DNA from: Escherichia coli
Lineage (GTDB): Bacteria > Pseudomonadota > Gammaproteobacteria > Enterobacterales > Enterobacteriaceae
Direction: 5' to 3' (one strand)
Assembly (NCBI RefSeq): GCF_003334315.1
Contig: NZ_QOWR01000005.1
Length of the DNA: 64,000 bases
This document shows positions 6,979-57,597 of the stretch, one piece after another. Below the pieces are notes generated by a model. The model was not told where the DNA came from, did not search any database, and saw only the letters and a list, made by a program, of their open reading frames with translations. Position 1 is the first letter of the stretch, and each line of letters opens with the position of its first letter. The translations under genes and the position numbers were made by a program.

Positions 6979-7012
6979 CAGCCCGACGAACTGTTTCGCC
7001 GGGCTGATTTTT
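6979..7012. terminator. probable bidirectional intrinsic terminator for convergent perM and focB
   Basis: Stem cagcccgacgaa/ttcgccgggctg (11/12 bp) with 4-nt loop, T5 on plus strand (7008-7012); U-rich after stem on minus strand too. Confidence 0.65.
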
Positions 7013-7860
7013 CAGGATTCCTGACGTAAATAGATAGCCCGATAACACATACTCACCAGCACTGCACCGCCGATAATATTACCCAGCATCACCGGGAGCA
7101 GATTGGCGGTAATAAAATGGCTTACCGTCAGTGCCGGAAAATTGTCTGCGCTACTGTGCGCCAGTTGCCAGAAGGGGGGAGGGGCGAAATGGCGAATGGC
7201 AATGGCGAACGGAATCACAAACAAATTGGCGATACAGTGCTCAAAGCCACTGGCGACAAACAGGGTGATGGGCAAAATCATGGCGACGATTTTGTCGCAT
7301 AACGAACGCCCGCAATAACTCATCCACAGCGCCAGGCAAACCATCAGATTGCACATAATGCCGAGGCTGACAGATTCAGTAAATGTATGATGCATTTTGC
7401 CCTCGGCGCAGTGTAAAACCGCGACTCCCCACATCGCGTTTTCACTCATCACCAGCCCGGAAAACCAGATTAACAAACTGAAACAGGCAATACCTGCCAG
7501 ATTACCGCAGGCCACCAGAAGTGCGTTAATCAGCCAAGTTCGCCAACTAATAACGCCCCGACTTTTTGCCATCACCGTCATTACCGACGAGGTGAACAGG
7601 CTGGTGCCGCAAACCGCCAGCAAAATAAAGCCGAGTGTAAAGCAAAGGCCGCCCACCAGATGGGTTAATGCCTGTGAAGACGGGGCATCGGCGATAACGG
7701 AAAGGTAAAAAGTAAATCCGATCGCCATAAACACGCCAGCGGACATCGCCATTAAAAAGACCGACACTTTACTGCGGGCAATTTTATGGGCGGCAATCCG
7801 TTCAGCGATTGCCGCTTTTCTGGCGCTCAACTGCAAGTCGAAAGAGAGTTTGTTTCTCAT
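7012..7860 (-). CDS. focB: formate channel (FNT family), hyf-associated
   Basis: 282-codon ORF MRNKLSFDLQLSARKAAIAERIAAHKIARSKVSVFLMAMSAGVFMAIG... Confidence 0.95.
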   Translation of the reverse strand: MRNKLSFDLQLSARKAAIAERIAAHKIARSKVSVFLMAMSAGVFMAIGFTFYLSVIADAPSSQALTHLVGGLCFTLGFILLAVCGTSLFTSSVMTVMAKSRGVISWRTWLINALLVACGNLAGIACFSLLIWFSGLVMSENAMWGVAVLHCAEGKMHHTFTESVSLGIMCNLMVCLALWMSYCGRSLCDKIVAMILPITLFVASGFEHCIANLFVIPFAIAIRHFAPPPFWQLAHSSADNFPALTVSHFITANLLPVMLGNIIGGAVLVSMCYRAIYLRQES

Positions 7861-7881
7861 GCATACTCCTGCAAAAGCAGA

Positions 7882-9894
7882 TTACAACACCTCGCGAACC
7901 GAGATCCCCAGCCGCTGCATTCGTGACAGCAGCGTGGTGCGCTTCATCCCTAATCGCGTCGCTGCGCCACGGGGCCCGGCAACAATGCCATTGGTTTCTC
8001 GCAATACCTGAACAATGCGCTGACGTTCTTCTTCGTCATTCTCTGGCGTCGTCGGGTGCAGTAACTGCGCCATTGAACTGCGAAGCGCTGAATCTTCATT
8101 TAGCGTCGGCAGTAAACGGCTTTGTCGGACATTTAGATGTAAATTCAGACTGTTACCACGAGTCAGCAGTACCGCCCGCTCAATCACGTTTTCCAGCTCG
8201 CGCACGTTGCCCGGCCAATCCCACGACATCAACTGGCGTAGTGCCTCGGTCGGAATGGCGTCAATTGCGCGATTCATATGGCGCGCCATTTTTTGCGTGA
8301 AATGTTTTGCTAAAAGAGGGATATCTTCCGGACGGTCGCGTAGCGGCGGCAATTCCAGTGGGAAGACATTCAGGCGATAAAAGAGATCGCTGCGAAACTG
8401 GCGATCTTCAACCATTTGCCACAAATCACGGTTGGTGGCGGCAATGACTCTGACATTCACCGGGATCGTTCTACTCCCGCCGAGACGCTCAATCTCCCGC
8501 TCCTGCAATACGCGCAGCAGTTTAGGCTGAAGTTCTAACGGCAGATCGCCAATTTCATCGAGAAACAACGTGCCGCCATCGGCAATTTCAAAACGACCAC
8601 GATGGGTATTAATCGCACCAGTAAACGCCCCTTTGTCATGACCGAATAACTCACTTTCCAGAAGACTGGCGGGGATGGCAGCGCAGTTGATTTTGACCAG
8701 CGGCTTGTCGCGTCGCGGGCTAAGTTGATGGATCGCTCTGGCGATCACCTCTTTGCCAGTTCCGGTTTCACCACAAATCAACACCGTACTGTCGCTCTTC
8801 GCCACAATATCTACCTGCTGGAGCAGGTCTTCCATTGCCTGGCTTTGATAGATAATGTCACCGATGCCCAGATTCGAAAGGAGCTGCTCGCTAAGCTGGT
8901 GGTTTTCTTGCTGCAAACTTTCCTGCAAATCGGTCATGCTACGCCAGGCATCGGCATTGCCAACGGCAATAGCGATGCGATCGGCTATGTGTTGTAGTAG
9001 CTGGCAGTTTTCCTCACTAAAGAGAGTGGAAGAGGTATGCGCCAGCAACAATGCACCCGGTGTATGGTTGCCAAAGGTAAGCGGTATAAGGAGCGCAGAT
9101 TCGCAGCCGTTAGATGCAAGTAAGAGTAATAACGGGTCGCGTTGCCAGAGAAACAGATCATCTGCACGGTGCGTCAAGGTCGGTTGTCGGGTTTGTAGCG
9201 TTTGTGTCAGCAATACACTTTCGCCAGGCATACAGCGTGGCAGACACGCACAATGTGAGGCAGAAAGATCGCTGCACCACAGGCTGAACTTCTCGTTCTT
9301 TCGATGATCGCCCAGTACCATACTGACTGAAGCCAGACCGAAAAAATGATGGATCTCACGAGCGACGTCAGCGATCAGATCGTCGAGATCAAGATGTGAC
9401 AGCACTGCATTAGTAATATCAACCAGTACCCGATGATGATCGCGATCTTTCTCCAGCAAACGCAGCGCCACCTGCTGTTCTTCATCATTGAGCCATGATT
9501 GCAGAACCGGGGTGATTATCCGCGCCAGCCAGTTAAACAGTGTGCAATCCTGGGAAGTAAAACGACTGCCGTGGGTGCGAATAAAGCGTAGCTCCGCCAT
9601 TCCACTACTGCCGAGAAGGACGGCGTGACGCGAATAATCGACCATCTCGCCCTGATACTCTGTTGTTGCCGTCACATCGCTGCCATCATCATGGTAGCGG
9701 TAATAGAAGTTGCTTTTGAGAACATGCAGTTCAATAAGTTGTACCGGGCTGAACGGCGGCGGCAGCGGGATGAAGGCGCGTAATAAAGACGCCTTGCCGT
9801 GTTTCTGTGCTAACCGCTCCGCGAGCATTCCGTTTACCGCTTCAATTGTTATTCCTTGTGGCGGGGCAAACATCGCCTCGTCTGACATAGCCAT
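7882..9894 (-). CDS. hyfR: sigma-54-dependent transcriptional activator of hyf (GAF, AAA+ and HTH domains)
   Basis: [13 protein letters not shown]...; Walker [15 protein letters not shown] sigma-54 interaction motif, C-terminal HTH; start taken at second Met (670 aa), 9897 also possible. Confidence 0.93.
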
Positions 9895-9923
9895 CAACAG
9901 TCCTTATTAATGAGAAATCCTTC

Positions 9924-10337
9924 TCACGCAATTTTTCTGGCCATCAGATAGATGGCCGGTTCCTGCACAATTTCATCCAACAGATGAATGAATTGAATGC
10001 TACGCGCCTGCCACACAGACGTCGCGTCATCCGCCAGTGGCGCGAATGCCCGGGTCAACAGGGCGGTGTGGCTGGCGTCAATAACAATCTCACCAAAAGT
10101 CATCACCCCCAGCATCTTACGTCGGGCTTGCTCCTCTTCGACCAGTGCAAGCCAATCTTCGTATTCCGTCAGTGGGCAGCGGAAGGCGACATTCAGACAA
10201 TCAATCACGCCAACGTGATGGCCGATAGCTAGCGAGTAATACATTACCTGAGAGCTGTGTTCCGGCATCTCGTCGCTACTGGCGACAAACTTTTTTCGCA
10301 GCGTCCAGAAAACAATTTCCCCGCACTCTTCAGTCAT
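9924..10337 (-). CDS. hyfJ: hydrogenase-4 maturation/assembly protein (HycH-like)
   Basis: 137 codons from ATG 10337: [41 protein letters not shown]...; track ORF 10400 trimmed. Confidence 0.9.
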
Positions 10338-11088
10338 GTAACCCCCGGAGTACGCGAAAGAGTTGCTGAACGATACTATTGAGACGTGGATCGTCGGCAT
10401 CGCGCAACCAGGTGTTAACCCGATTTCCTGTAGGATCGTCGCTTAAATGGCGCAGGAGCCGATCGCAAATTTCTCGCCCCTGACGATAGCCCGCCAGCCG
10501 CCGCGCTTCTCGCTCAATGGCGATACGCTGTGATGGCGGGATCTGCGGCCACAACGGTTGCATAGTCACCCCGGTGGGATCGCGATAATCCACAGCGTGA
10601 ATCTTCTGTTGCAGCAAACCGAGCGCCACGGCGAAACCGTGAATGGTGGCGGCCGGTGTTGGCGGGCAGCCGGGGATCCAAACATCAATGGGGACAATGG
10701 TGTCGCTACCGCCCCAGACGCTGTAGAGATCGTGGAAAATACCGCCGCCGACACCGCACGCGCCGTAGGAAACACAAATTTTATGATCGGGGGCAGACTC
10801 ATACGCCCGAAGTGCAGGCATACGCATCGCCCGGGTGACTGCGCCAGTAAATAACAAAATATCGGCGTGACGCGGTGATGAAACAACCTTAATGCCAAAA
10901 CGTTCTGCGTCGAATACTGGTGTAATGGCAGCAAAAATTTCGATTTCACAGGCGTTGCAGCCGCCGCAATCGATGCGATAAACGTAAGCCGAGCGACGGA
11001 TATCCTGTAGCAAATGCCGCTTCATCTTTTGCGTTTGCTCGTCCAGCGTGATGGGCTGGCTGACATATTGTGTAAGCACTGGACTCAT
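10330..11088 (-). CDS. hyfI: hydrogenase-4 small subunit (NuoB-like, Fe-S)
   Basis: 252-codon ORF with [10 protein letters not shown] and GCPP motifs; overlaps hyfJ start by 8 nt. Confidence 0.94.
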
Positions 11089-11630
11089 AGCTGCTCCTTA
11101 GCCACCAGCAGTACATCTGTATCGTCGTTGATCAGCGTCGCGCGTTGTTTGCATTCCGGGCAGACGCTCGCTTGCGCCCACAACATTTCGCGGTTTTGTG
11201 GCGCATTTTGTTGCTGTGCTAACAATTCAGCAGCCAGTGCGATGGTTTTTTGCGGGGCAAACGGGCGTTCGCAACGGCTGCAACGTTGTAGATGGAACGT
11301 CGCGCGGGTATAGAGATCGGCTTTATTGGTGACGGTCAGTTCAAAGTTATTGGTAAGCTGGATGGCTCTGGTCGGGCACACTTCTTCACAACGTCCGCAG
11401 TAAATACAACGCCCCAGATAGAGCTGCCAGGTGCGCGAATTTTGCTGGTCGTCGGTCTGGATAGTCAGCGCATTTGCCGGACAAGCACAGGCGCAGGCAC
11501 CGCAGGCAATACATTGGCTGGGCATCAGGTCCGGTTTTCCGCGAAAGCCAGGGCTGACCTCCAGTGGCGCGAAGGGATATTTCACCGTCGCGGTTCCGGC
11601 GCGCATAATAGTTTTCAGTAACTTCAGCAT
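11085..11630 (-). CDS. hyfH: hydrogenase-4 ferredoxin-like subunit (two 4Fe-4S motifs)
   Basis: 181-codon ORF with [12 protein letters not shown] and [12 protein letters not shown] cysteine clusters; ATGA overlap with hyfI. Confidence 0.94.
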
Positions 11631-11639
11631 CTTCTGTCC

Positions 11640-13307
11640 TTACTTCAGCGGCGAACGGTTACGATCAATGCCGTAGCGTTCGATCTCTTTATACGGCACG
11701 GTTTTTGACTGGCGCTTGCGCACATCTACCAGCGTCACACGGTCGGTACAGGAGTAGCAGGGATCAAGGCTACCGATAATCAGCGGTGCGTCAGAAACGG
11801 TATTGCCGCGCAGCATGTAACGCAACACCGGCCAGTTGGCGTAGGTGGCGGCACGGCAGCGCCAGCGGAACAATTTTTGGTTATCACCGAGCATGCTCCA
11901 GTGCACGTCTTCACCGCGTGGCGCTTCAACAAAGCCCAGCGCGAATGCGTGAGGTTTATAGCTAAAGCCTTCGGTCAGCAGTGGGGTATCCGGCATGTTG
12001 TCGAGGGCAAATTCCAGCATTGCCAGCGAATCAAACGTCTCTTTGACACGGACCATCACGCGGGAGAAAACATCGCCGCCGGTAAAGGTAAACAGTGTTT
12101 TTGGAATATTGCCGTAGTCGGCGTAGGGGTGATCAAAGCGCAAATCACGGGCGATTTGTCGGTCGAGAATGCCAATGCCCTGAGTGCGTTGTTCCATATT
12201 CGGCGTAGCAAGCAGCATCTCTACCAGCTCCGACACGTCGGCGCGCATCTCGCGCACCAGTTTCAGCGTTTGCAGACGTTGCTCTTTGAGAATATCGCGG
12301 CGAACACCACCAATCAGATTCAGACCGTAGGTTTTACGCGACCCGATCAGCAATTCCGCCATCGTCATCGACTTTTCCCGCACGCGGAAAAATTGCATAA
12401 AGCCGGTATCAAAACCAACGAAATGGCAGGAGAGGCCAAGGTTAAGCAAATGACTGTGTAGCCGTTCGACTTCCAGCAGAATCGAGCGAATAGTATGTGC
12501 TCGTTGCGGCACCTCAATCCCCAGTGCATTTTCAACCGAATTGGTATAGGCCACACTGTGGGCAAAACCGCAAATCCCACACACGCGGTCCGATAAGAAG
12601 GTCACTTCGTTGTAGCCCATCCGCGTTTCTGCCAGTTTCTCCATGCCGCGATGGACATAAAACAGGCGGTAATCAGCATCGACAATTTGCTCGCCATCCA
12701 CAAACAAGCGGAAGTGACCCGGTTCATCGGAGGTGATATGCAGCGGGCCGACAGAGATCACCCGCGCATCGCTGTTGCCCTCATTGATAAACGGATACGT
12801 TTCGGAATCAGTCGTCGGTTCAGGGCGCAGTCGATAATCCATCGCATCTTTGCGCAGCGGATGCATATCTTCCGGCCAGTCATCGGGCAACACCAGGCGA
12901 CGCTGATCCGGCAGGCCAACCGGAATCAGCCCGTACATATCGCGAATTTCTCGCTCGCCCCAGACCGCGGCAGGGACGCGCGGTGTGACTGACGGAAACT
13001 CCCGACTGTCGGCATCGACCAGCGCCTTCACCACAATCCAGCATTTTTCGGCCCCTTCCATTGAAAGGGCATAATAAACCGCGTAATGACCGTTAAGTGT
13101 CCGCTCGTCGTTGCCAAACAGGACCGGAAGCCAGCCATCATGTTGATAATAAAGATACTGTACAACGTCAGGCAGCAGATTGATTTTCACCGTAATGGTG
13201 ACCTGTTCAGGCGTTTGTCGCTCTTCATCCAGCACCGCGCCGGGGAACTGCGTTTTCAGGGCGGCGAGAATCGCTTCGCCACGATTTGACGATGAATTAA
13301 CGTTCAC
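11640..13307 (-). CDS. hyfG: hydrogenase-4 large catalytic subunit (NiFe, NuoCD-like)
   Basis: 555 codons from GTG 13307: (M)[24 protein letters not shown]...; C-terminal DPCYSCTDR nickel-binding motif; track ORF 13352 trimmed. Confidence 0.92.
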
Positions 13308-14877
13308 TGTGTTTCTCCGAAACAGATGCGGTGCCTGAAGGCAAAAAATCATGCCAGGTGCTACGTTGTGCAGGCAGATCGTGCGTCCCTGAGAGGACTA
13401 TAGTGGAAGCGCCCGCCAGGATCCTGATGACAGGTTGTGGAATATGCGTTCCCATCGCCAGCATCATGACCAGCAGAATCACCATTGGCGAGGTGGTCAA
13501 CCAGCCGAGATCACCCCGGTTAACGGCCTGCGGCGGTTTCGCCATTAACACCCGCGCAGCCATCCGTACCAGGCCCGCCAGCACCAGCGTTAACAGCAAT
13601 AACAGCAGGACGATAATCAGCAGGTGATTACGTGCCAGTCCGGCGGTAATGGTCATAAATTCGCTAAGAAAAATGTTGAAGGGCGGCATCCCTGCCAGCG
13701 CCAGCGCACCGCCGCCAAACAGCACGGCGGTAAATGGCATGATTTTGAGCATCCCACAGACGACGTTGAGATCGCGCGTGCCGTACTTGAGCAGTACATT
13801 GCCGGAACCGCAGAACAGCAGCGTTTTTGCCAGACTGTGGTTTAAGATGTGCAGCAGCGCGGCAAAAATTCCCAGCGGCCCGCCAATGCCTAGCTCCACC
13901 GCGACCAGCCCCATGTTCTCCACGCTGGAGTACGCCAGCAGACGCTTAATGTCCCGCTGTACCAGAATGAAAAATGCCGCCACGGCAACCGACAACATGC
14001 CGAAGATGAGCAACAACCGGTTGGGGAAATCGCTGCCGATGGCTTGGCAAATAATGATGTAATAGCGAATCAGCACCAACAGCGCGCAGTTCAGCACTAC
14101 GGCGGAGAGCAGGGCGCTGACCGGACTCGGCGCTTCACTGTGAGCATCCGGCAGCCAGGCGTGCATGGGAAATAGCCCGGTTTTGGTACCAAAGTCAATT
14201 AGCAAAAACACAAAGGCCAACAGCATTAATGTTGGGTCAAGCAAGGACGATTGCTTAAGAACCTCGCTCCAGAATATCGCCATTTCTGCCTGCGGCATAA
14301 CGCTGGCGGTGTTGGCGTATACCAGCACGGTACCGAACAGACCAAAAGCGACACCAACAGTACAAATAATGATGTACTTCCATGCAGCTTCCAGCGATGA
14401 ACGCTGACCGTAAATGCCTACCAGAAACGCCGAGCTTAAGGTGGTGGCTTCGATCGCCGCCCACATCACAATCAGGTTATTGCTGGTAACAACCAGCAGC
14501 ATGGTGAACAAAAACAGATGGAAGAAACCGTAGTAATCGCACAGCGTAACGGGTGAAAGCTCGCCGTGTGCCACTTCATGACGCATGTAGCCAATCGAGT
14601 AAATACCGGTGAGAAAGCCAATCACACCAAGAATGGCGAGGAACAAACCGCCCAGACCATCAATATGAAGCCACAGTCCCGCAGCGAATATTTCTCCTGC
14701 ATCAGCGGCAGTTTGGACCACCCAGAGTGCCAGAATCAGCAGCAGTGTGATCCCTAAGCTATGTAATACGGTCACCGTGCGAGTCGCAGAAAGTCTCCGT
14801 TTCCGGCAGGCAAAACAGAGCAGCGAAAAAAGCAGCGGCGTGAGCAGGAGTAAAGCGAACATCACAGAATAACTCAT
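13297..14877 (-). CDS. hyfF: hydrogenase-4 membrane subunit (NuoL/M/N antiporter-like)
   Basis: 526-codon [33 protein letters not shown]..., polytopic. Confidence 0.94.
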
Positions 14878-14881
14878 CTCA

Positions 14882-15532
14882 TTATCCCTTCAGCGCGGTC
14901 AAGTTGTTCACGTCCAGCGTGCCGTGGGTACGCCATATTTTTCTTGCCAGTAACACCATCACAATGACGGCGAAGATGGCGTCGGTAGCGATACCTATTT
15001 CCACCAGTTCCGGTGCTCGCCAGGCAAGAAGCGCCAGCACCAGATGGGAGCCGTTTTCCATCAGGCAGTAACCAAAAATTTGCCGCAGGATATTGCGCTG
15101 GCTGACAATGCACAGCAGGCCAAGCAGAAAATGACCTAACGCTACCGCCAGCGCCGGTTTCAGCCCGGTAGCCATCGGTAGCTTCACGGGCTGAACGACA
15201 AATGCGCAAAGCAGGACAATTAACGCCGCGAGCAGTGCCATCATTGCCGGACCGAATAACGCTTTTTCCGGGATGTTCTGGGGAATATTTCGTGCAGCGT
15301 AAGTCATGATTAACGGTACCAGCAGCACTTTGGTGATAAAGGCGCTGGCGGACCAGATCAGCAGTTGCTCTGCGGCGAACAGGCACGAGAGGGTGGCGAA
15401 AATAGACACCAGCACCAGTGACTGGCAGGCGTAAAATCCGCATGACAGGCGATAGCTTTTGACGCTAATCACAAACAGTGATGTCAGCATCATCAGTCCC
15501 GCCAGATTATTTACGATCATAGAACCGGTCAT
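14882..15532 (-). CDS. hyfE: hydrogenase-4 membrane subunit
   Basis: 216-codon [33 protein letters not shown]... Confidence 0.93.
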
Positions 15533-15543
15533 TCATCATCTCC

Positions 15544-16982
15544 TTACTGCAACCAGGTCGCGGCGATTACGCTGGAAATCAGCGACATCACAATCAGTAC
15601 AATCAACACCAGGCGCATTGACCCTGGCAGCGGTGCGGCATCGGCGACGGCCTCGCTCGGTTTGCCAGGCACGACGCGACCAAACCAGCGAATAAACCAG
15701 GCGAAACTGGCGACCGATTCAATCATCAGCAGAATCATGGCGGGCAGCAGGATCCAGTACTCCACTGACAACGCAAAACCGGCAGCAAACAGCGGGAATT
15801 TACTGAAGAAGCCGTTGAACGGCGGCACGCCGGTAATTGCCAGCGCTGCCACGCAGAAACCCACGCCAGGCAACGGCAGGGTGTGCAATACGCCACGCAG
15901 ACGCGGCAACAAGCGCGTGCCGCAGCTGTAACTCAGCGCACCTGCTACAAGGAAAAACAGGCTTTTAGCGAACGCGTGGTTGACGATGTAGGCGATGCTA
16001 CCCTCCAGCGCCAGCCGCGAGCCGAAGATGGAGAGCGACAAGCCGAAGAACATCCAGCCAAGTTGAGTGATGGTCGACCAGGCCAGCAACCGCTTCATAT
16101 CCTGCTGTGGCAAATACATCAGAAATCCATAAAGAATGGTGACCAGGGCCATGACCATGCCAACGCCGCCAATCACATGCGGGATATTGCCGCCGTCGAT
16201 AATGGCGCGGGCAAAAATGTAAACGCCCACTTTCACCATCGATGCGGCGTGGAGATAGGCGCTGATCGGTGTTGGCGCTTCCATTGCGTCCGGTAGCCAC
16301 GCTTGCATCGGTAGCTGGGCCGATTTCCCCCACGCGGCAAACAGGATGCCGCCATAAACCAGATAACGTGCGTCGCCGTGTAACTCGCTCATCGCGCTAA
16401 GCGCAAACGTTCCGGTCTGCAAAAACAGCGTGGCGGCGGCAAGATACAACCCCAACGAGCCGATATGAGTGATAAGTAACGCTTTTAGTGCTGAACGCTG
16501 CGCTTTATCGCTCTGGTAATAACTGATCAACGCCCAGGAGCAGCCGCCCGTAATTTCAAAAAACAACAACTGACCGAGCAGCGTCGAGGAGAGTACCAGT
16601 CCCGCCATCGCGCCGATAAACACCAGCAAAAATGCGTAATAACGATTCGTGCCGTTATGCGGGTGTTCGCGATTTTTATCCGTCAGATAACCCGTGGAGT
16701 AGATCGTGACCAGCAAACCGAGAAACACCACCACAAACAGAATCAGCGTACTCACGCGATCAATGACCAGGCCAAACAATGCCACATCCCCCACGTTGAC
16801 CAACGTCAACGTGACGGCAACTTTATCGGCCTGATAAAACGCGGAGATCAGCGACAACATGCACAGCGTGGTCAGTGCGGCGAACAAAACCCCCATTCGG
16901 CGGCCCGACGTTGTGGCGAAAACGAAACGACCAGTGCGCCGATAAAAGGCAGCATTAACGTCGTCAGAGCAAGATTTTCCAT
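15544..16982 (-). pseudogene. hyfD: hydrogenase-4 membrane subunit HyfD, interrupted by a frameshift in a G5/C5 run (16890-16894)
   Basis: ATG 16982 gives MENLALTTLMLPFIGALVVSFSPQRRAAEWG then stops at 16874-16872; the 450-codon body (15544-16896) is in the adjacent frame; joining with one extra G gives 479 aa. Confidence 0.8.
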
Positions 16983-16998
16983 ATTCCGTCAGTGCTCC

Positions 16999-17945
16999 TT
17001 ACAGACCGGTTAACCAGAAGACCCATGCAAGCGCAGCAAGGCTGAAGCCAAGCCAGGTCACATGGTGAATGAGTAAAAAACGCCCGCATGCCAGCGTGTT
17101 TTCTGCGATTGAAGCCAGTACAAAAATCAGCAAAACCTTGAGCAGCGTAACGACAAGTGAAGTCAGCAGGCAGGTGAGAGAAAGTTCTTGCGCGCGCCCA
17201 AAGGGCAGAAACAGGGCCACAAACAGTGCTGCCATCACGACCTGTTTCAGCCCCAGCCCCCATTTCGCCAACGCCAGCCCGGCACCGGAATATTCGGTCA
17301 GCGGGCCTTCCTGTAATTCCTGTTCTGCTTCAGCAACATCAAAGGGAATTTTTCCCATCTCTATGAAGCAGGCAAAACCACAGGCCAGTAACGCCAGTAC
17401 GGTGGTTAGCGGCGAGTTCCAGCCCATCGCCAGCGTATTGCTGATCATCTCGATATGCGTGGAATCCGCTATCAGCGCCAATACCAGCAGTGAGAGAATG
17501 AGCATGGGTTCGACCAGAATGCCGAGCGTCAACTCGCGACTGGCACCGACTCCCGCAAACGGGCTTCCGGTATCCAGCCCTGAAAGAGCAAAGAAAAAAC
17601 GAAACAGGGCAAGAAGATAGATAAGGGTGATCAGATCGCCGCCGCCCGCAAAAGGGAAACGGTAATAAACAGTGGTAGGGCCATCGCCAGCACCAGCATG
17701 CTGCTGATTAATACCCACGGCATCAGGCGGAACATCAGACCTGAAGATATAGGCGCAACTTCCTGGCGTTTAAACAGTTTGTGGATATCGCGATAATCCT
17801 GCCAGATCTCCGGCCCGCGGCGGGAGTGCATACGCGCGCGTATCTGCCGGGAAATACCCGTAAAAAGTGGGGTTAGCATCAGCAGAATCACGGCCTGTGC
17901 TAACGCAAAAATGACCAGATATCCGTCGCAAAGAGTTTGTCTCAT
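16999..17945 (-). pseudogene. hyfC: hydrogenase-4 membrane subunit HyfC (NuoH-like), interrupted by a frameshift in a G3/C3 run (17654-17656)
   Basis: ATG 17945 gives MRQTLCDGYLVIFALAQ...PLFITVS then LLRAAAI-stop (17631); remainder (...PFAGGGDLITLIYLL... to 16999) is in the adjacent frame; joined length 315 aa. Confidence 0.8.
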
Positions 17946-17955
17946 GGTGATTTCC

Positions 17956-19974
17956 TTAGACGGCAATAGCGATTAGCAGCACAACCAGTGCGGCGACCAC
18001 ATACAGGCAATAGAGACGAAAGTCGCCGCTTTGCAGATGCTGTATTTCTTTGGCCAGCCGTTGGGTGGCGCTCACGATGGGGCGGATCACCCGCTCATCC
18101 CAGAAGGGTTCTGTGCTCTGAGCCCTGGCGGTGACGTGCGCAAGACCTTTATTTAGCCTCAGCGTAGGGTCGAGCTGTTGTCGTAGACGAAATAGCGCAG
18201 AAAAGACCACACGCAGCGGCTGCATCACGCCATTGCCTGACGGGGCCATCGCATTTTCCCAGCTGTAGCCGCATGCCCAGGCATCTCCTGTGCGACGAAA
18301 CGCTGCGCGGCGCGAACGACACCACAGCCAGTAAAGGCCAGGCAGCAAAGGCATCGCCAGTAGTAACAGCAACAGTAATGAAGGAGTGACCCGTGTATGA
18401 AACGTGCCGGGTACAAGTGCTATTCCGCTGGCGACAGTGACGGGAGGGGTATCGGTAAACGCATGGGCAATATGCATTATCTTCGGTGCCAGCCAACTGG
18501 CACTAAGCGCAATTAATACGCAGAGTGCCGCGAGCAGTAGCATGGCGACGATCATCGTATTTGGCACTTCCTGTGCCTCTTCAGCGTGTGTACTGCGCGG
18601 CGCACCACAGAAAGTAATACCGTACATTTTTACGAAGCACATTACTGCCAGCCCACCAGTGACTGCCAGCATTACCATAGCAATAGGACCCGCAAGTTGT
18701 AGCGCTACGGCTTCCACACGACTTAGTGAGAACAGCGACTGCCAGGTGTACCATTCGCTGATAAAATCATTCAGCGGAGGAAGGGCTGATATCGCCAGGC
18801 AACCAATCAGGCATGCTGCGGCTGTCCACGGCATCCGTTTCGCCAGTGCCCCCATTTTTTCCATGTCGTGGGTATGCAAACGCGAAATAATCGCGCCCGC
18901 GCCGAGAAATAGCAGCCCTTTGAACAGCGCATGGTTGAGCAGATGAAACAGTGCGCCGAGCAGTCCAACCACGGTGAGCAGCGGGTCGTGCAGTGACAGA
19001 CCGACCATCGCCACACCGACCGCCAGCAAAATAATGCCGACGTTTTCGACGGTACTCCAGGCCAGTAGCCGTTTGATATCCTGTTCCGCCAGCGCATACA
19101 GCACGCCCAGGAGCGCGGAGATTGCGCCGATCGCCATCACCAGAATGCCCCACCACAGCGGCAAACCCGTTTGCGCCAGCAGATCCATCGCCACTTTCAG
19201 GATGCCGAAAATACCGATTTTGACCATTACGCCAGACATCAACGCTGAAGCGTGCGATGGTGCGGCAGGGTGAGCGCGCGGCAACCAGCTGTGCAACGGC
19301 ATCATCCCGGCTTTCGCGCCAAAACCGAAAAAGGCCAGCAGGAACACCGCCGACGCCAGCCCCGGAGAAAGTGAAAGCGTGCGGAAACTGGCAAAATCGA
19401 GGCTGCCGCTTTCGCGCCCCATCAGCAAGAAGGCGATCATTATCAGCACCGATCCGGCGTGGGCGATAAAAAAGTAGAGCATGCCAGCGTTGATCGACGT
19501 TTTATCCTGCCTGGCAATGACCAGAAACCAGGAAGACAGCGACATCATTTCAAACAGCACGATGAACCAAAAAGCGTTGTCCATCACCAGCAGGGCAACC
19601 ATCGATGCGATGAAAAGATTCATAAAGAAGCCCATCGCCGCCGCGCCTTTGCCCTCGTATTCGCGCATATAAGTCAATGAATAGAGCGAACAAACCACCA
19701 CCAGCAAGGAGATAACCAGCACCATAAATGCCGAGAGGCTATCCATTCGCAGGGTTAAATCGGCAAAGTCAAAAGGGGTGGCAAAATGGGCGACTAAAGT
19801 TACACCAGCATGTAATTGCGTAATTCCGCTGATGATGCCAATCACGCCGCCCACCAGCGATGTGATGCTGGAAAGCTTAATAGCCAGTCTGTCCAGACCG
19901 AGTAAAAACAGCGAAGCCAGACTGGCAAACAGATAGAGGATCAGCGACCAGGTTAATAATTGCAGGGCATCCAT
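17956..19974 (-). CDS. hyfB: hydrogenase-4 membrane subunit (NuoL/MrpA antiporter-like)
   Basis: 672-codon ORF MDALQLLTWSLILYLFASLASLFLLGLDRL... Confidence 0.95.
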   Translation of the reverse strand: MDALQLLTWSLILYLFASLASLFLLGLDRLAIKLSSITSLVGGVIGIISGITQLHAGVTLVAHFATPFDFADLTLRMDSLSAFMVLVISLLVVVCSLYSLTYMREYEGKGAAAMGFFMNLFIASMVALLVMDNAFWFIVLFEMMSLSSWFLVIARQDKTSINAGMLYFFIAHAGSVLIMIAFLLMGRESGSLDFASFRTLSLSPGLASAVFLLAFFGFGAKAGMMPLHSWLPRAHPAAPSHASALMSGVMVKIGIFGILKVAMDLLAQTGLPLWWGILVMAIGAISALLGVLYALAEQDIKRLLAWSTVENVGIILLAVGVAMVGLSLHDPLLTVVGLLGALFHLLNHALFKGLLFLGAGAIISRLHTHDMEKMGALAKRMPWTAAACLIGCLAISALPPLNDFISEWYTWQSLFSLSRVEAVALQLAGPIAMVMLAVTGGLAVMCFVKMYGITFCGAPRSTHAEEAQEVPNTMIVAMLLLAALCVLIALSASWLAPKIMHIAHAFTDTPPVTVASGIALVPGTFHTRVTPSLLLLLLLAMPLLPGLYWLWCRSRRAAFRRTGDAWACGYSWENAMAPSGNGVMQPLRVVFSALFRLRQQLDPTLRLNKGLAHVTARAQSTEPFWDERVIRPIVSATQRLAKEIQHLQSGDFRLYCLYVVAALVVLLIAIAV

Positions 19975-20591
19975 TAGCGTTGCTCCTGAGTGAGGGAAAG
20001 GGGATCCTCCCCGCCATTGGCAAACCAGCTTGCGGCAAGGCGCTGTTTTTCTTTCATCTGACGTTGCAGGCTATCGTCGGTGATCAGCCGTAACGCCTGA
20101 TTCGGGCAAGCGCGAACGCAGGCCGGACCTTCTGGCAAGAAATCACACAGGTCGCATTTCACCGCGACGGTCTGGACACCCGGTTCCCAGCGCAGCAACG
20201 CATGTTGGGGCAGCACGTTTTCTTCGCCGTTTTTGAGTGAGCCTTCAGCCTGAAAAACATATTGCGCATGGGCATTCACCGGACGGCTTCCTGAAGCGCT
20301 GATTGCGCCAAATGGGCAGACCACGGCGCAAAGCTTGCAGCCAATACAGAGGCTTTCGTTGAGTTGGATCGCATCATCCCTCTGAGAGATGGCATTGACC
20401 GGGCAGACCTGCAGGCAAGGGGCTTCCTCACAGTGATGACACACGACAGGGGCAGTGATTGTTGACGTCTTCGCCAGGGCCAGGCGCGGGTGTTGCTGTA
20501 AACCTTGCGTTTTATGCACGTCCGAACAGGCAGCGAGACAGGTATTACATCCTGTACACCACAGTGGTTCGGCCACCACAAAGCGGTTCAT
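19974..20591 (-). CDS. hyfA: hydrogenase-4 4Fe-4S ferredoxin subunit
   Basis: 205 codons from ATG 20591: MNRFVVAEPLWCTGCNTCLAACSDVH...; four CxxCxxCxxxCP-type clusters; upstream ATG 20630 lies upstream of the predicted sigma-54 start site. Confidence 0.92.
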   Translation of the reverse strand: MNRFVVAEPLWCTGCNTCLAACSDVHKTQGLQQHPRLALAKTSTITAPVVCHHCEEAPCLQVCPVNAISQRDDAIQLNESLCIGCKLCAVVCPFGAISASGSRPVNAHAQYVFQAEGSLKNGEENVLPQHALLRWEPGVQTVAVKCDLCDFLPEGPACVRACPNQALRLITDDSLQRQMKEKQRLAASWFANGGEDPLSLTQEQR

Positions 20592-28720: not shown

Positions 28721-28735
28721 AAGACAGATTACCAG

Positions 28736-28816
28736 GCCTGATAAGACGCGTGAGCGTCGCATCAGGCATCGTTCACCATTGCCGGATGCGGCGTGAACGC
28801 CTTATCCGGCCTACGG
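28736..28816. repeat. REP/BIME elements (two units)
   Basis: gcctgataagacgcgtgagcgtcgcatcaggc and gccggatgcggcgtgaacgccttatccggcctacgg. Confidence 0.85.
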
Positions 28817-30563: not shown

Positions 30564-30920
30564 TTATGAGAATAAATACTCATTTAAGGGTGAAAACATT
30601 TTGCCTGCAAATGATTATCAGGAAATATAACATTATCGAAGTATTCAAATTAACAACTATTAAATAATATTAAACATTTTTAACGTAAACATTAAGAATA
30701 TTCATCTTGTTATCTGTCTGTATTTTAACCAGAATTAAATCAGTATTAGATGCCGTATGAATATCTCGAAATGTTGCTGTGTATCACATACAAATCATCA
30801 CCGCAGGACCATAGTATTTACATAAGATTTGTCCCCCGGAGGTAGTCATCGCAGCAATCGAGTAAATTAGCTTCACCACGGTATATTGTTTCCGTAGAAT
30901 ACCCATAATTAGAGGTTGTT

Positions 30921-40071: not shown

Positions 40072-40117
40072 GTAGACCGGATAAGACGCTGTAGGCCGGA
40101 TAAGACGCGTCAGCGTC
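40072..40117. repeat. REP/BIME element between convergent ypfG and tktB
   Basis: gtagaccggataagacgctgtaggccggataagacgcgtcagcgtc. Confidence 0.8.
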
Positions 40118-53597: not shown

Positions 53598-54824
53598 ATG
53601 GGAATTAACGAAATCATCATGTACATCATGATGTTCTTTATGCTGATAGCTGCCGTAGACAGGATCCTGTCGCAGTTCGGCGGTTCTGCTCGTTTCCTCG
53701 GTAAGTTCGGTAAAAGTATCGAAGGATCAGGCGGTCAGTTCGAAGAAGGCTTTATGGCAATGGGCGCACTGGGCCTGGCGATGGTCGGTATGACCGCGCT
53801 GGCACCGGTACTGGCTCACGTTCTCGGGCCGGTAATTATTCCGGTTTACGAAATGCTCGGCGCTAACCCATCGATGTTCGCCGGAACACTGCTGGCGTGC
53901 GATATGGGCGGCTTCTTCCTCGCCAAAGAGCTGGCGGGCGGCGACGTAGCCGCGTGGCTATACTCTGGGTTAATTCTCGGGTCGATGATGGGGCCAACGA
54001 TTGTGTTTTCCATTCCGGTGGCGCTCGGCATTATCGAACCTTCTGACCGTCGTTATCTGGCGCTCGGCGTGCTGGCGGGCATTGTGACCATTCCGATTGG
54101 TTGTATCGCTGGTGGTCTGGTTGCTATGTACTCCGGTGTGCAGATCAACGGCCAGCCGGTGGAATTCACTTTCGCCCTGATCCTGATGAACATGATCCCG
54201 GTGATCATTGTTGCGATTCTGGTGGCGCTGGGGCTGAAATTCATCCCGGAAAAAATGATCAACGGCTTCCAGATCTTCGCCAAATTCCTCGTTGCATTGA
54301 TCACCCTCGGTCTTGCCGCTGCGGTAGTGAAATTCCTGCTTGGCTGGGAACTGATCCCCGGTCTGGATCCTATCTTTATGGCCCCTGGCGATAAACCCGG
54401 TAAGGTGATGCGCGCCATTGAAGTTATCGGTTCTATCTCCTGCGTTCTGTTAGGGGCGTATCCGATGGTGCTGCTGCTGACTCGCTGGTTTGAAAAACCG
54501 CTGATGAGCGTCGGTAAAGTACTGAATATGAACAACATCGCGGCAGCCGGCATGGTGGCAACGCTTGCCAACAACATCCCGATGTTCGGCATGATGAAGC
54601 AGATGGATACCCGCGGCAAAGTCATCAACTGCGCCTTCGCCGTTTCCGCTGCTTTCGCCCTGGGCGACCACTTAGGCTTCGCCGCTGCCAACATGAACGC
54701 CATGATCTTCCCGATGATTGTCGGCAAGTTGATCGGCGGCGTAACGGCGATTGGCGTGGCGATGATGCTGGTGCCAAAAGAAGACGCGACCGCGACTAAA
54801 ACCGAAGCGGAGGCACAATCGTGA
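53598..54824 (+). CDS. eutH: ethanolamine permease/facilitator EutH
   Basis: 408-codon ORF MGINEIIMYIMMFFMLIAAVDRILSQFGGSARFLGKFGKSIEG..., polytopic. Confidence 0.95.
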   Translation: MGINEIIMYIMMFFMLIAAVDRILSQFGGSARFLGKFGKSIEGSGGQFEEGFMAMGALGLAMVGMTALAPVLAHVLGPVIIPVYEMLGANPSMFAGTLLACDMGGFFLAKELAGGDVAAWLYSGLILGSMMGPTIVFSIPVALGIIEPSDRRYLALGVLAGIVTIPIGCIAGGLVAMYSGVQINGQPVEFTFALILMNMIPVIIVAILVALGLKFIPEKMINGFQIFAKFLVALITLGLAAAVVKFLLGWELIPGLDPIFMAPGDKPGKVMRAIEVIGSISCVLLGAYPMVLLLTRWFEKPLMSVGKVLNMNNIAAAGMVATLANNIPMFGMMKQMDTRGKVINCAFAVSAAFALGDHLGFAAANMNAMIFPMIVGKLIGGVTAIGVAMMLVPKEDATATKTEAEAQS

Positions 54825-56224
54825 ACACTCGCCAGCTATTGAGCGTCGGTATCGATATCGGCACCACCACCACCCAGGTGATTTTCTCCCGGCTGGAGCT
54901 GGTTAACCGTGCGGCGGTGTCGCAGGTGCCGCGCTACGAATTCATTAAACGCGAAATTAGCTGGCAAAGTCCGGTGTTCTTTACCCCTGTCGATAAACAG
55001 GGCGGTTTAAAAGAAGCGGAACTGAAAACCTTAATACTCGAGCAATATCATGCTGCGGGTATTGAGCCGGAAAGCGTTGATTCTGGTGCCATCATCATCA
55101 CCGGTGAAAGCGCGAAAACCCGCAATGCTCGCCCGGCGGTGATGGCGCTCTCTCAGTCGCTGGGCGATTTTGTCGTTGCCAGCGCCGGGCCGCACCTCGA
55201 ATCCGTGATCGCCGGTCACGGAGCCGGGGCACAAACCCTTTCTGAACAACGGCTGTGTCGGGTACTGAATATCGACATCGGCGGTGGCACCGCGAACTAC
55301 GCCCTGTTCGATGCCGGAAAAATCAGCGGCACTGCCTGCCTCAACGTCGGTGGTCGCCTGCTGGAAACCGACAGCCACGGGCGCGTGGTTTACGCTCATA
55401 AACCGGGGCAGATGATTGTGGATGAGTGCTTCGGTGCAGGCACTGACGCCCGTTCGCTGACCGGCGCGCAGCTGGTGCAGGTTACCCGGCGGATGGCGGC
55501 GCTGATTGTCGAAGTGATTGACGGAACGCTTTCGCCGCTCGCGCAGGCATTGATGCAAACCGGTTTGCTGCCCGCAGGTGTTACGCCCGAAATCATTACG
55601 CTTTCTGGAGGCGTGGGCGAATGTTATCGCCACCAGCCCGCCGACCCGTTCTGTTTTGCCGATATTGGCCCACTTCTGGCAACGGCGCTGCATGACCATC
55701 CGCGCCTGCGTGAGATGAATGTGCAGTTTCTGGCGCAAACCGTACGCGCCACGGTGATTGGCGCGGGTGCACATACCCTTTCGCTCTCTGGCAGCACAAT
55801 CTGGCTGGAGGGCGTACAACTGCCGCTGCGCAATTTGCCGGTGGCGATCCCGATTGATGAAACGGATCTGGTGAGTGCCTGGCAACAGGCGCTGCTTCAG
55901 CTGGATCTTGATCCCAAAACTGACGCGTACGTGCTGGCGCTTCCCGCCTCGCTGCCTGTGCGTTACGCCGCGGTACTGACGGTCATCAACGCGCTGGTCG
56001 ATTTCGTCGCGCGTTTTCCGAATCCGCATCCCCTGCTGGTGGTGGCCGGGCAGGACTTTGGTAAAGCTCTGGGCATGTTGTTGCGCCCACAGCTACAACA
56101 ACTCCCGTTGGCAGTCATTGACGAAGTGATTGTCCGCGCGGGGGACTATATCGACATTGGTACGCCTCTTTTTGGCGGATCGGTTGTGCCGGTGACGGTG
56201 AAATCACTCGCATTTCCTTCCTGA
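54821..56224 (+). CDS. eutA: ethanolamine ammonia-lyase reactivase EutA
   Basis: 467-codon ORF MNTRQLLSVGIDIGTTTTQVIFSRLELVNRAAVSQVPRYEFIKREISW...; GTGA overlap with eutH. Confidence 0.95.
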   Translation: MNTRQLLSVGIDIGTTTTQVIFSRLELVNRAAVSQVPRYEFIKREISWQSPVFFTPVDKQGGLKEAELKTLILEQYHAAGIEPESVDSGAIIITGESAKTRNARPAVMALSQSLGDFVVASAGPHLESVIAGHGAGAQTLSEQRLCRVLNIDIGGGTANYALFDAGKISGTACLNVGGRLLETDSHGRVVYAHKPGQMIVDECFGAGTDARSLTGAQLVQVTRRMAALIVEVIDGTLSPLAQALMQTGLLPAGVTPEIITLSGGVGECYRHQPADPFCFADIGPLLATALHDHPRLREMNVQFLAQTVRATVIGAGAHTLSLSGSTIWLEGVQLPLRNLPVAIPIDETDLVSAWQQALLQLDLDPKTDAYVLALPASLPVRYAAVLTVINALVDFVARFPNPHPLLVVAGQDFGKALGMLLRPQLQQLPLAVIDEVIVRAGDYIDIGTPLFGGSVVPVTVKSLAFPS

Positions 56225-56235
56225 GGGAACGACTT

Positions 56236-57597
56236 ATGAAACTAAAGACCACATTGTTCGGCAATGTATATCAGTTTAAGGATGTAAAAGAGGTGCTGGC
56301 TAAAGCCAACGAACTGCGTTCGGGGGATGTGCTGGCGGGCGTTGCAGCGGCAAGCTCACAGGAGCGCGTGGCGGCAAAGCAGGTGTTGTCGGAAATGACC
56401 GTAGCGGACATCCGCAATAATCCGGTGATTGCCTATGAAGATGACTGCGTGACGCGGCTGATTCAGGACGACGTTAACGAAACGGCCTACAACCAGATTA
56501 AAAACTGGAGCATCAGCGAACTGCGTGAGTATGTGCTGAGCGATGAAACCAGCGTGGACGACATTGCCTTTACCCGCAAAGGGCTGACCTCGGAAGTGGT
56601 CGCGGCGGTAGCGAAGATTTGCTCCAACGCGGACCTGATCTACGGCGCGAAGAAAATGCCGGTAATCAAAAAGGCCAATACCACCATCGGTATTCCGGGC
56701 ACCTTTAGCGCCCGTTTGCAGCCGAACGATACCCGTGACGACGTGCAAAGTATCGCTGCGCAAATCTATGAAGGGCTTTCCTTTGGGGTGGGCGATGCGG
56801 TGATCGGCGTTAACCCGGTAACTGACGACGTGGAAAACTTAAGCCGCGTGCTGGATACCATTTATGGCGTGATCGACAAATTCAACATCCCAACTCAGGG
56901 CTGCGTACTGGCGCACGTCACCACCCAGATCGAAGCGATTCGTCGCGGCGCGCCTGGCGGACTGATTTTCCAGAGTATCTGTGGCAGCGAAAAAGGGCTG
57001 AAAGAGTTTGGCGTGGAACTGGCGATGCTCGACGAAGCGCGCGCAGTGGGCGCAGAGTTCAATCGTATCGCCGGGGAAAACTGCCTCTACTTCGAAACCG
57101 GACAAGGCTCTGCGCTATCCGCTGGCGCTAACTTCGGCGCTGACCAGGTGACGATGGAAGCACGTAACTATGGGCTGGCGCGTCATTACGATCCGTTTAT
57201 CGTCAACACCGTGGTCGGCTTTATTGGGCCGGAGTATCTCTACAACGACCGCCAGATTATCCGTGCTGGCTTAGAAGATCACTTTATGGGCAAGCTGAGC
57301 GGCATCTCTATGGGCTGTGACTGCTGCTACACCAACCACGCTGACGCTGACCAGAACCTCAACGAAAACCTGATGATCCTGCTCGCCACCGCAGGCTGCA
57401 ACTACATCATGGGGATGCCGCTGGGTGATGACATCATGCTCAACTACCAGACCACCGCATTCCACGATACCGCCACTGTGCGTCAGTTACTCAACCTGCG
57501 TCCGTCACCGGAGTTTGAACGCTGGCTGGAAAGCATGGGCATTATGGCAAACGGTCGCCTGACCAAACGGGCGGGCGATCCGTCACTGTTCTTCTGA
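56236..57597 (+). CDS. eutB: ethanolamine ammonia-lyase large subunit
   Basis: 453-codon ORF MKLKTTLFGNVYQFKDVKEVLAKANELRSGDVLAGVAAASSQERVAAKQ...; starts 12 nt after eutA stop. Confidence 0.96.
   Translation: MKLKTTLFGNVYQFKDVKEVLAKANELRSGDVLAGVAAASSQERVAAKQVLSEMTVADIRNNPVIAYEDDCVTRLIQDDVNETAYNQIKNWSISELREYVLSDETSVDDIAFTRKGLTSEVVAAVAKICSNADLIYGAKKMPVIKKANTTIGIPGTFSARLQPNDTRDDVQSIAAQIYEGLSFGVGDAVIGVNPVTDDVENLSRVLDTIYGVIDKFNIPTQGCVLAHVTTQIEAIRRGAPGGLIFQSICGSEKGLKEFGVELAMLDEARAVGAEFNRIAGENCLYFETGQGSALSAGANFGADQVTMEARNYGLARHYDPFIVNTVVGFIGPEYLYNDRQIIRAGLEDHFMGKLSGISMGCDCCYTNHADADQNLNENLMILLATAGCNYIMGMPLGDDIMLNYQTTAFHDTATVRQLLNLRPSPEFERWLESMGIMANGRLTKRAGDPSLFF

Follow-up and report, generated by a model that had tools for sequence, protein, structure and literature searches.

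The hyfC frameshift of an Escherichia coli hyf operon, an allele shared with BL21 and other genomes

The hyf operon and the split hyfC gene

The stretch of DNA analyzed here, called the window throughout, comprises 64 kb of an Escherichia coli contig. It spans purM to yfeY and is collinear with the genome of CP53 (NZ_CP033096.1) over all 64 kb. The hyfABCDEFGHIJR-focB operon occupies positions 7012-20591 on the minus strand, and its genes follow the order hyfA-B-C-D-E-F-G-H-I-J-R-focB, as they do in K-12 and CP53. All genes of the operon except hyfC and hyfD aligned to K-12 without a gap and ended with one terminal stop each. The hyfC gene (16999-17945, minus strand) lies between hyfB and hyfD and belongs to the membrane subunits of hydrogenase-4 (FHL-2) of the NuoH/HycD family. 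It measured 947 nt, compared with 948 nt in K-12, and its coordinates were those of the CP53 hyfC, which is annotated as "frameshifted." The adjacent hyfD (15544-16982, minus strand) is likewise a pseudogene; a 1-nt deletion has shortened a coding-strand run of six G to five (plus-strand C run at 16890-16894).

Two open reading frames cover hyfC. The first starts on the minus strand at the ATG at 17945 and stops at the TGA at 17633-17631, with the C-terminal end ...FITVSLLRAAAI. The second, also on the minus strand (16999-17718), contains ...FPFAGGGDLITLIYLLALFRFF... and runs to the native stop, overlapping the first by 88 nt. At 17645-17665, the plus-strand sequence is CCCGCAAAAGGGAAACGGTAA, and the run GGG at 17654-17656 has an A on either side (lesion context AAAAGGGAAAC). 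On the coding strand, this is a run of three C at codons 97/98 (Ser-Pro), where intact alleles have four bases. hyfC of K-12 MG1655 (b2483, 948 nt, 315 codons) reads GTTTCCCCTTTTGC and the window GTTTCCCTTTTGC at the same site. The upstream fragment (17631-17945) is made up of native residues 1-97, seven out-of-frame residues (LLRAAAI), and the TGA at 17631-17633; the downstream fragment (16999-17653) holds the remaining 218 codons of HyfC (98-315), which lie in the -1 frame.

Alignment of the 948-nt K-12 gene with the window hyfC gave 98.1% nucleotide identity with 17 substitutions and a single 1-nt gap. Insertion of one C into the window gene produced an uninterrupted 315-residue product of the NuoH/HycD type. 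An earlier note, made from the letters of the window, had described a hyfC split by a 1-nt shortfall, with an upstream frame ending in LLRAAAI and a stop at 17631, the rest of the protein in the adjacent frame down to 16999, an overlap of 88 nt, and a frame switch at 17654-17656. These points were all borne out by the sequence and the translations of its open reading frames, as were the gene's identity as hyfC, located between hyfB and hyfD, and the loss of one base from its C4 run (plus-strand G4). The note's expectation that one extra G would give 315 residues, as in K-12 HyfC, agreed with the repaired product and with the 315 codons of b2483. The comparison with b2483 that it had proposed showed CCCC in K-12, CCC in the window, and no other indel. 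Chance does not enter into a discrete difference of this kind; what had to be decided was whether it represents an error or a true allele.

The repaired 315-residue protein matched Pfam family NADHdh (PF00146) over residues 18-312, covering model positions 8-297 of 298 (E = 3.3e-54). Residues 11-312 aligned with HycD in the experimental FHL-1 structure (PDB 7z0s chain D; E = 4e-91). Against NCBIfam, it gave NuoH matches below threshold only, as is expected of a paralogue; the downstream open reading frame alone scored as the C-terminal two-thirds of NuoH, and the 104-residue upstream stub alone matched no NCBIfam family. Repaired HyfC thus falls into the same Pfam family as HycD and as NuoH/ND1 of complex I. 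HycD is its paralogue in the hyc operon and is intact and functional there, whereas the window hyfC is truncated after residue 97. The K-12 MG1655 protein (b2483, NP_416978.4) is the orthologue from the same operon position, with its frame kept intact by CCCC. The break follows Ser97 and interrupts a block, SP..GDLITL.YL, that is conserved between HyfC and HycD. Because the frame is lost at codon 98 and a stop follows seven codons on, the window lacks an uninterrupted frame for the whole subunit, and its hyfC is a pseudogene of the NADHdh family rather than a functional member.

Distribution of the three-base run and the question of sequencing error

Carriers were counted among 5,426 complete E. 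coli genomes with a 44-nt probe centered on the three-base run and a 45-mer for the four-base run. The three-base run was found in 306 genomes (105 matched exactly, and 201 had a single synonymous SNP, at 17670) and the four-base run, the K-12 version, in 3,974. Some hyfC match was obtained for 4,293-4,297 genomes, and about 1,130 (about a fifth) had none. Carriers of the three-base run included CP53, W5-6, HS30-1, ATCC 8739, and the E. coli B family (BL21-Gold(DE3), NEBExpress, Rosetta2, and C3029), together with many isolates of human, pig, poultry, frog, and water origin. In ATCC 8739, the span of 2,402 nt was that expected if the hyfC and hyfD deletions are both present. All sampled intact alleles (K-12, O157:H7, ST540, AR_0061, 14EC033, LR-64-1, and 13E0780) had four C. 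With 3,974 genomes on one side and 306 on the other, and with a full-length NADHdh product upon repair, we take the four-base run to be the functional, ancestral majority state of hyfC.

In each of the three carrier records opened (CP53, BL21-Gold(DE3), and PD007), the RefSeq annotation pipeline PGAP labeled both hyfC and hyfD as "frameshifted." When CP53, BL21-Gold, and PD007 were aligned, they shared with the window not only the deletion but also its haplotype-specific substitutions in hyfC and in hyfD alike; the deletion has thus been inherited together with the haplotype. The hyfC pseudogenes of BL21(DE3) (ECBD_RS06250, NC_012947.1) and CP53 (EAH50_RS08290) have lost the same nucleotide from the same run, on the same hyfC-hyfD haplotype and with the same companion frameshift in hyfD. 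The window gene differs from that of CP53 by one substitution (R287C, at 17088) and from that of BL21 by R287C and the synonymous site at 17670.

PD007 (NZ_CP120910.1), described as a "milk isolate," has a genome of 4,641,666 bp, compared with 4,641,652 bp for MG1655, and its hyf coordinates are within 20 bp of those of MG1655. Its hyfC/hyfD allele is nevertheless the frameshifted one of the B type and not that of K-12. The PD007 genome may be a reference-guided assembly.

Reference hyfC genes with a three-base run had been named in the earlier note as something that would speak against a split. Other genomes do share the run, as the same pseudogene, whereas K-12 has four bases. The split is thereby confirmed and its novelty gone; the hyfC frameshift is already known as an annotated pseudogene and is neither novel nor surprising. 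An explicit description of the three-base lesion was not found in the literature searched. In the BL21(DE3) hydrogenase paper (PMC3149613), hyf occurs only in a reference; a paper on a BL21 metabolic model does not mention hyf, and the main text of PMC5909237 does not contain "hyfC."

The nearest intact hyfC among the sampled alleles, that of ST540, differed from the frameshifted haplotype by seven substitutions in addition to the missing C. G46E, G161D, and A258T, together with five synonymous changes, fell on the branch of the frameshifted haplotype. R287C (a coding-strand C-to-T change at 17088) was private to the window, being absent from CP53, BL21, K-12, O157, and the other sampled alleles, and it affects an arginine conserved in HycD. 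The ratio of three or four nonsynonymous to five synonymous changes hints at relaxed constraint on hyfC, in counts too small to serve as proof. The dN/dS ratio on this branch was set aside as evidence of relaxed selection for the same reason, the substitutions being too few to be decisive.

The missing base of hyfC and the lesion of hyfD affect two separate short homopolymers. This is a pattern typical of long-read errors, and the isolate might truly have four G, one of which was lost in assembly. However, both deletions recur on one haplotype in genomes sequenced independently by many laboratories and on many platforms, among them several records of BL21 and other B strains, and a run of three or four bases is short for a systematic homopolymer error. 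BLAST comparison of the window with CP53 revealed only 21 SNPs in 64 kb and 3 small intergenic indels, with no indel in a coding region. The 56 other window genes that were checked all translated without interruption, so the window assembly is not generally prone to homopolymer errors. Because 306 complete genomes carry the same three-base run, and with the remainder of the window clean, sequencing error was rejected and is considered very improbable; the lesion is to be regarded, on these comparisons, as a true allele and not an assembly error. A homopolymer frameshift that resembles an assembly error when seen in a lone window can be a genuine lineage-wide allele, which calls for caution in such cases.

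Possible routes to a HyfC product from the split gene

The interrupted gene would still yield some full-length HyfC if ribosomes shifted frame by -1, or if transcription slipped, in CCCTTTT. The shift needed is indeed -1, it could take place anywhere within the seven codons ahead of the TGA, and a C3T4 stretch is present. Yet the zero-frame codons (ACC GTT TCC CTT TTG CGG GCG GCG GCG ATC TGA) lack an X XXY YYZ heptamer, and the C3 and T4 runs are far below the length at which RNA polymerase slips, which in dnaX and IS elements takes 7 or more A/T. Nor is a frameshift conserved at this site, the 3,974 genomes with C4 being read straight through it, and HycD is collinear with the repaired HyfC. 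The unrelated second frameshift in hyfD fits decay and not regulation. Programmed frameshifting and transcriptional slippage were rejected on account of the missing slippery heptamer, the short runs, and the lack of conservation, and we rate such recoding as highly unlikely.

Alternatively, each fragment might be translated by itself, the second by reinitiation past the TGA, and the two might then join to form a functional HyfC. Both fragments are open, and the downstream one retains its resemblance to NuoH. Against this, the downstream frame reaches up to a GTG at 17718, and its next canonical start is located more than 120 nt beyond the lesion. None of the ATG, GTG, or TTG codons of this frame between 17718 and 17427 was preceded by a Shine-Dalgarno sequence, the best agreement with AGGAGG being 3 of 6 positions. 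Independent translation of the downstream frame was rejected for this reason. Furthermore, the break falls inside the HycD-conserved block, and the radical substitutions G46E and G161D, to which R287C is added in the window, have accumulated in the fragments. A split but working HyfC thus appears hardly credible.

A phase-variable locus, in which the run would toggle between three and four bases and turn Hyd-4 off and on, agrees with a homopolymer change of a single unit and with the existence of both states in E. coli, but it can be virtually dismissed, given that the tract of three bases in the window and four in intact alleles is well under the 7 or more units typical of contingency loci, that high-frequency slippage takes longer tracts, that the three-base run goes with one haplotype in the sampled alleles and is present in both of its sub-haplotypes (differing at 17670), that the nearest sampled intact allele is seven further substitutions away, and that hyfD would have to switch too. 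The four-C run was combined with the A366 marker in 74 genomes, which were partly inspected.

Loss of hydrogenase-4 function and decay of the hyf operon

The hyfC lesion is very probably a fixed, vertically inherited loss-of-function frameshift that arose by loss of one C from CCCC at codons 97-98. Translation from the normal start would yield a stub of 104 residues, representing about the first third of an eight-helix subunit of the NuoH/HycD type followed by seven wrong residues. The remaining 218 codons would be stranded in the -1 frame without a start signal of their own. By its likeness to HycD, HyfC would be the core membrane anchor of the complex. Since HyfC is the counterpart of HycD and hyfD is frameshifted as well, the carrier lineage is most likely unable to build the membrane arm of hydrogenase-4 (formate hydrogenlyase-2). 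Its fermentative H2 production would presumably proceed via Hyd-3/FHL-1. In Pectobacterium, deletion of hyfB-F brought H2 accumulation (FHL-2) to about 5%, whereas deletion of hyfDEF alone had no negative effect (PMC7384014). From these outcomes the hyfC lesion is expected to matter and, by analogy, would be the functionally decisive hit rather than the hyfD lesion.

Other lesions of the same kind affect other genes and positions of the same operon. The five-G run of hyfD was found as an exact 44-mer in 996 complete genomes. A CC-to-C frameshift at nt 591 of hyfB, which is absent from the window, was found in 1,264. Overlap between the three carrier sets (306 for hyfC, 996 for hyfD, and 1,264 for hyfB) was examined in ten genomes in which hyfB-hyfD was aligned. 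In this alignment, the window, CP53, and BL21 had hyfC and hyfD frameshifted and hyfB intact; LR-64-1, 13E0780, AR_0061, and ST540 combined the hyfD frameshift with that at hyfB nt 591 and had hyfC intact; and in O157:H7 9234, K-12, and 14EC033 all three genes were intact. Every genome with the five-G hyfD thus had exactly one upstream lesion among the ten sampled alleles, either hyfB nt 591 or hyfC C3. The hyfC lesion most likely represents one step in a species-wide decay of hyf; the homopolymer frameshifts in hyfB, hyfC, and hyfD differ from one E. coli lineage to another. hyfD has been named among the metabolic genes most often pseudogenized in E. coli in a 2026 pangenome study (PMC13322260). 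A title containing "a silent operon, hyf" is cited in entries of the reference lists of PMC3149613 and PMC7384014.

It is conceivable, if rather doubtful, that this decay is ordered and not random, with hyfD-broken genomes having one upstream lesion and hyfD-intact genomes having none, as in the ten alleles. Should the whole collection show this order, it would point to selection for silencing a Hyd-4 membrane arm left incomplete, and possibly harmful, by the first hit, and the loss would then be adaptive and not neutral drift. The pattern might instead reflect a few old haplotypes that hitchhiked and were spread by recombination.

The hyfD deletion places an ATG (16896-16894) in frame with the remainder of the gene, giving an open reading frame of 450 residues that lacks the first 29. 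This shortened form appears as "hydrogenase 4 subunit D" in some RefSeq records.

The segment hyfA-hyfD (15544-20591) had an identity to K-12 of 98.1-98.8%, compared with 99.4-100% for the flanking genes (99.7-100% for bcp, gcvR, dapA, bamC, and hyfE-hyfR). As hyfA-D, with the 17 substitutions of hyfC among its differences, is more divergent from K-12 than its flanks, the block of about 5 kb that holds both frameshifts seems to be a distinct haplotype block, probably a recombined one. The other hyf genes (hyfA, hyfB, hyfE-J, hyfR, and focB) are intact in the window, and the operon is thus not fully degraded; the window strain might retain a residual soluble HyfGHI module. Of the 21 SNPs between the window and CP53, six are located in hyf genes, namely at 14097, 14195, and 14310 (all hyfF), 15557, 17088, and 18767. 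The three in hyfF cluster within 214 nt, which could be due to a small recombination patch or to relaxed constraint.

On the reading of hyfC as an inherited loss-of-function allele, a functional membrane arm of hydrogenase-4 should be scored as absent from the window strain, as from BL21(DE3) and about 6% of the complete genomes of E. coli, and Hyf activity should not be assumed in metabolic models or in the engineering of H2 production in carrier backgrounds. Frameshifts in hyfB, hyfC, or hyfD are present in at least a third of hyf-carrying genomes, which fits an operon that is dispensable in E. coli. Beyond correct annotation, the importance of the hyfC lesion is small.

Some minor features were seen elsewhere in the window. 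Relative to CP53, it had 2 additional T at 887-888 between purM and upp, lacked 5 nt at 30910 between yffB and ypfM, and lacked 28 nt at 40117 between ypfG and tkt, where the CP53 stretch resembles a tandem repeat. The only Rfam match, unrelated to hyfC, was the REP-derived naRNA4 at 28735-28811 (minus strand, 92.6 bits; plus strand, 60.8 bits). At eutA-eutB (54821-57597), the eut operon was uninterrupted, as in CP53. In K-12, the CPZ-55 prophage occupies this junction, so the window lineage would have the intact eut arrangement.
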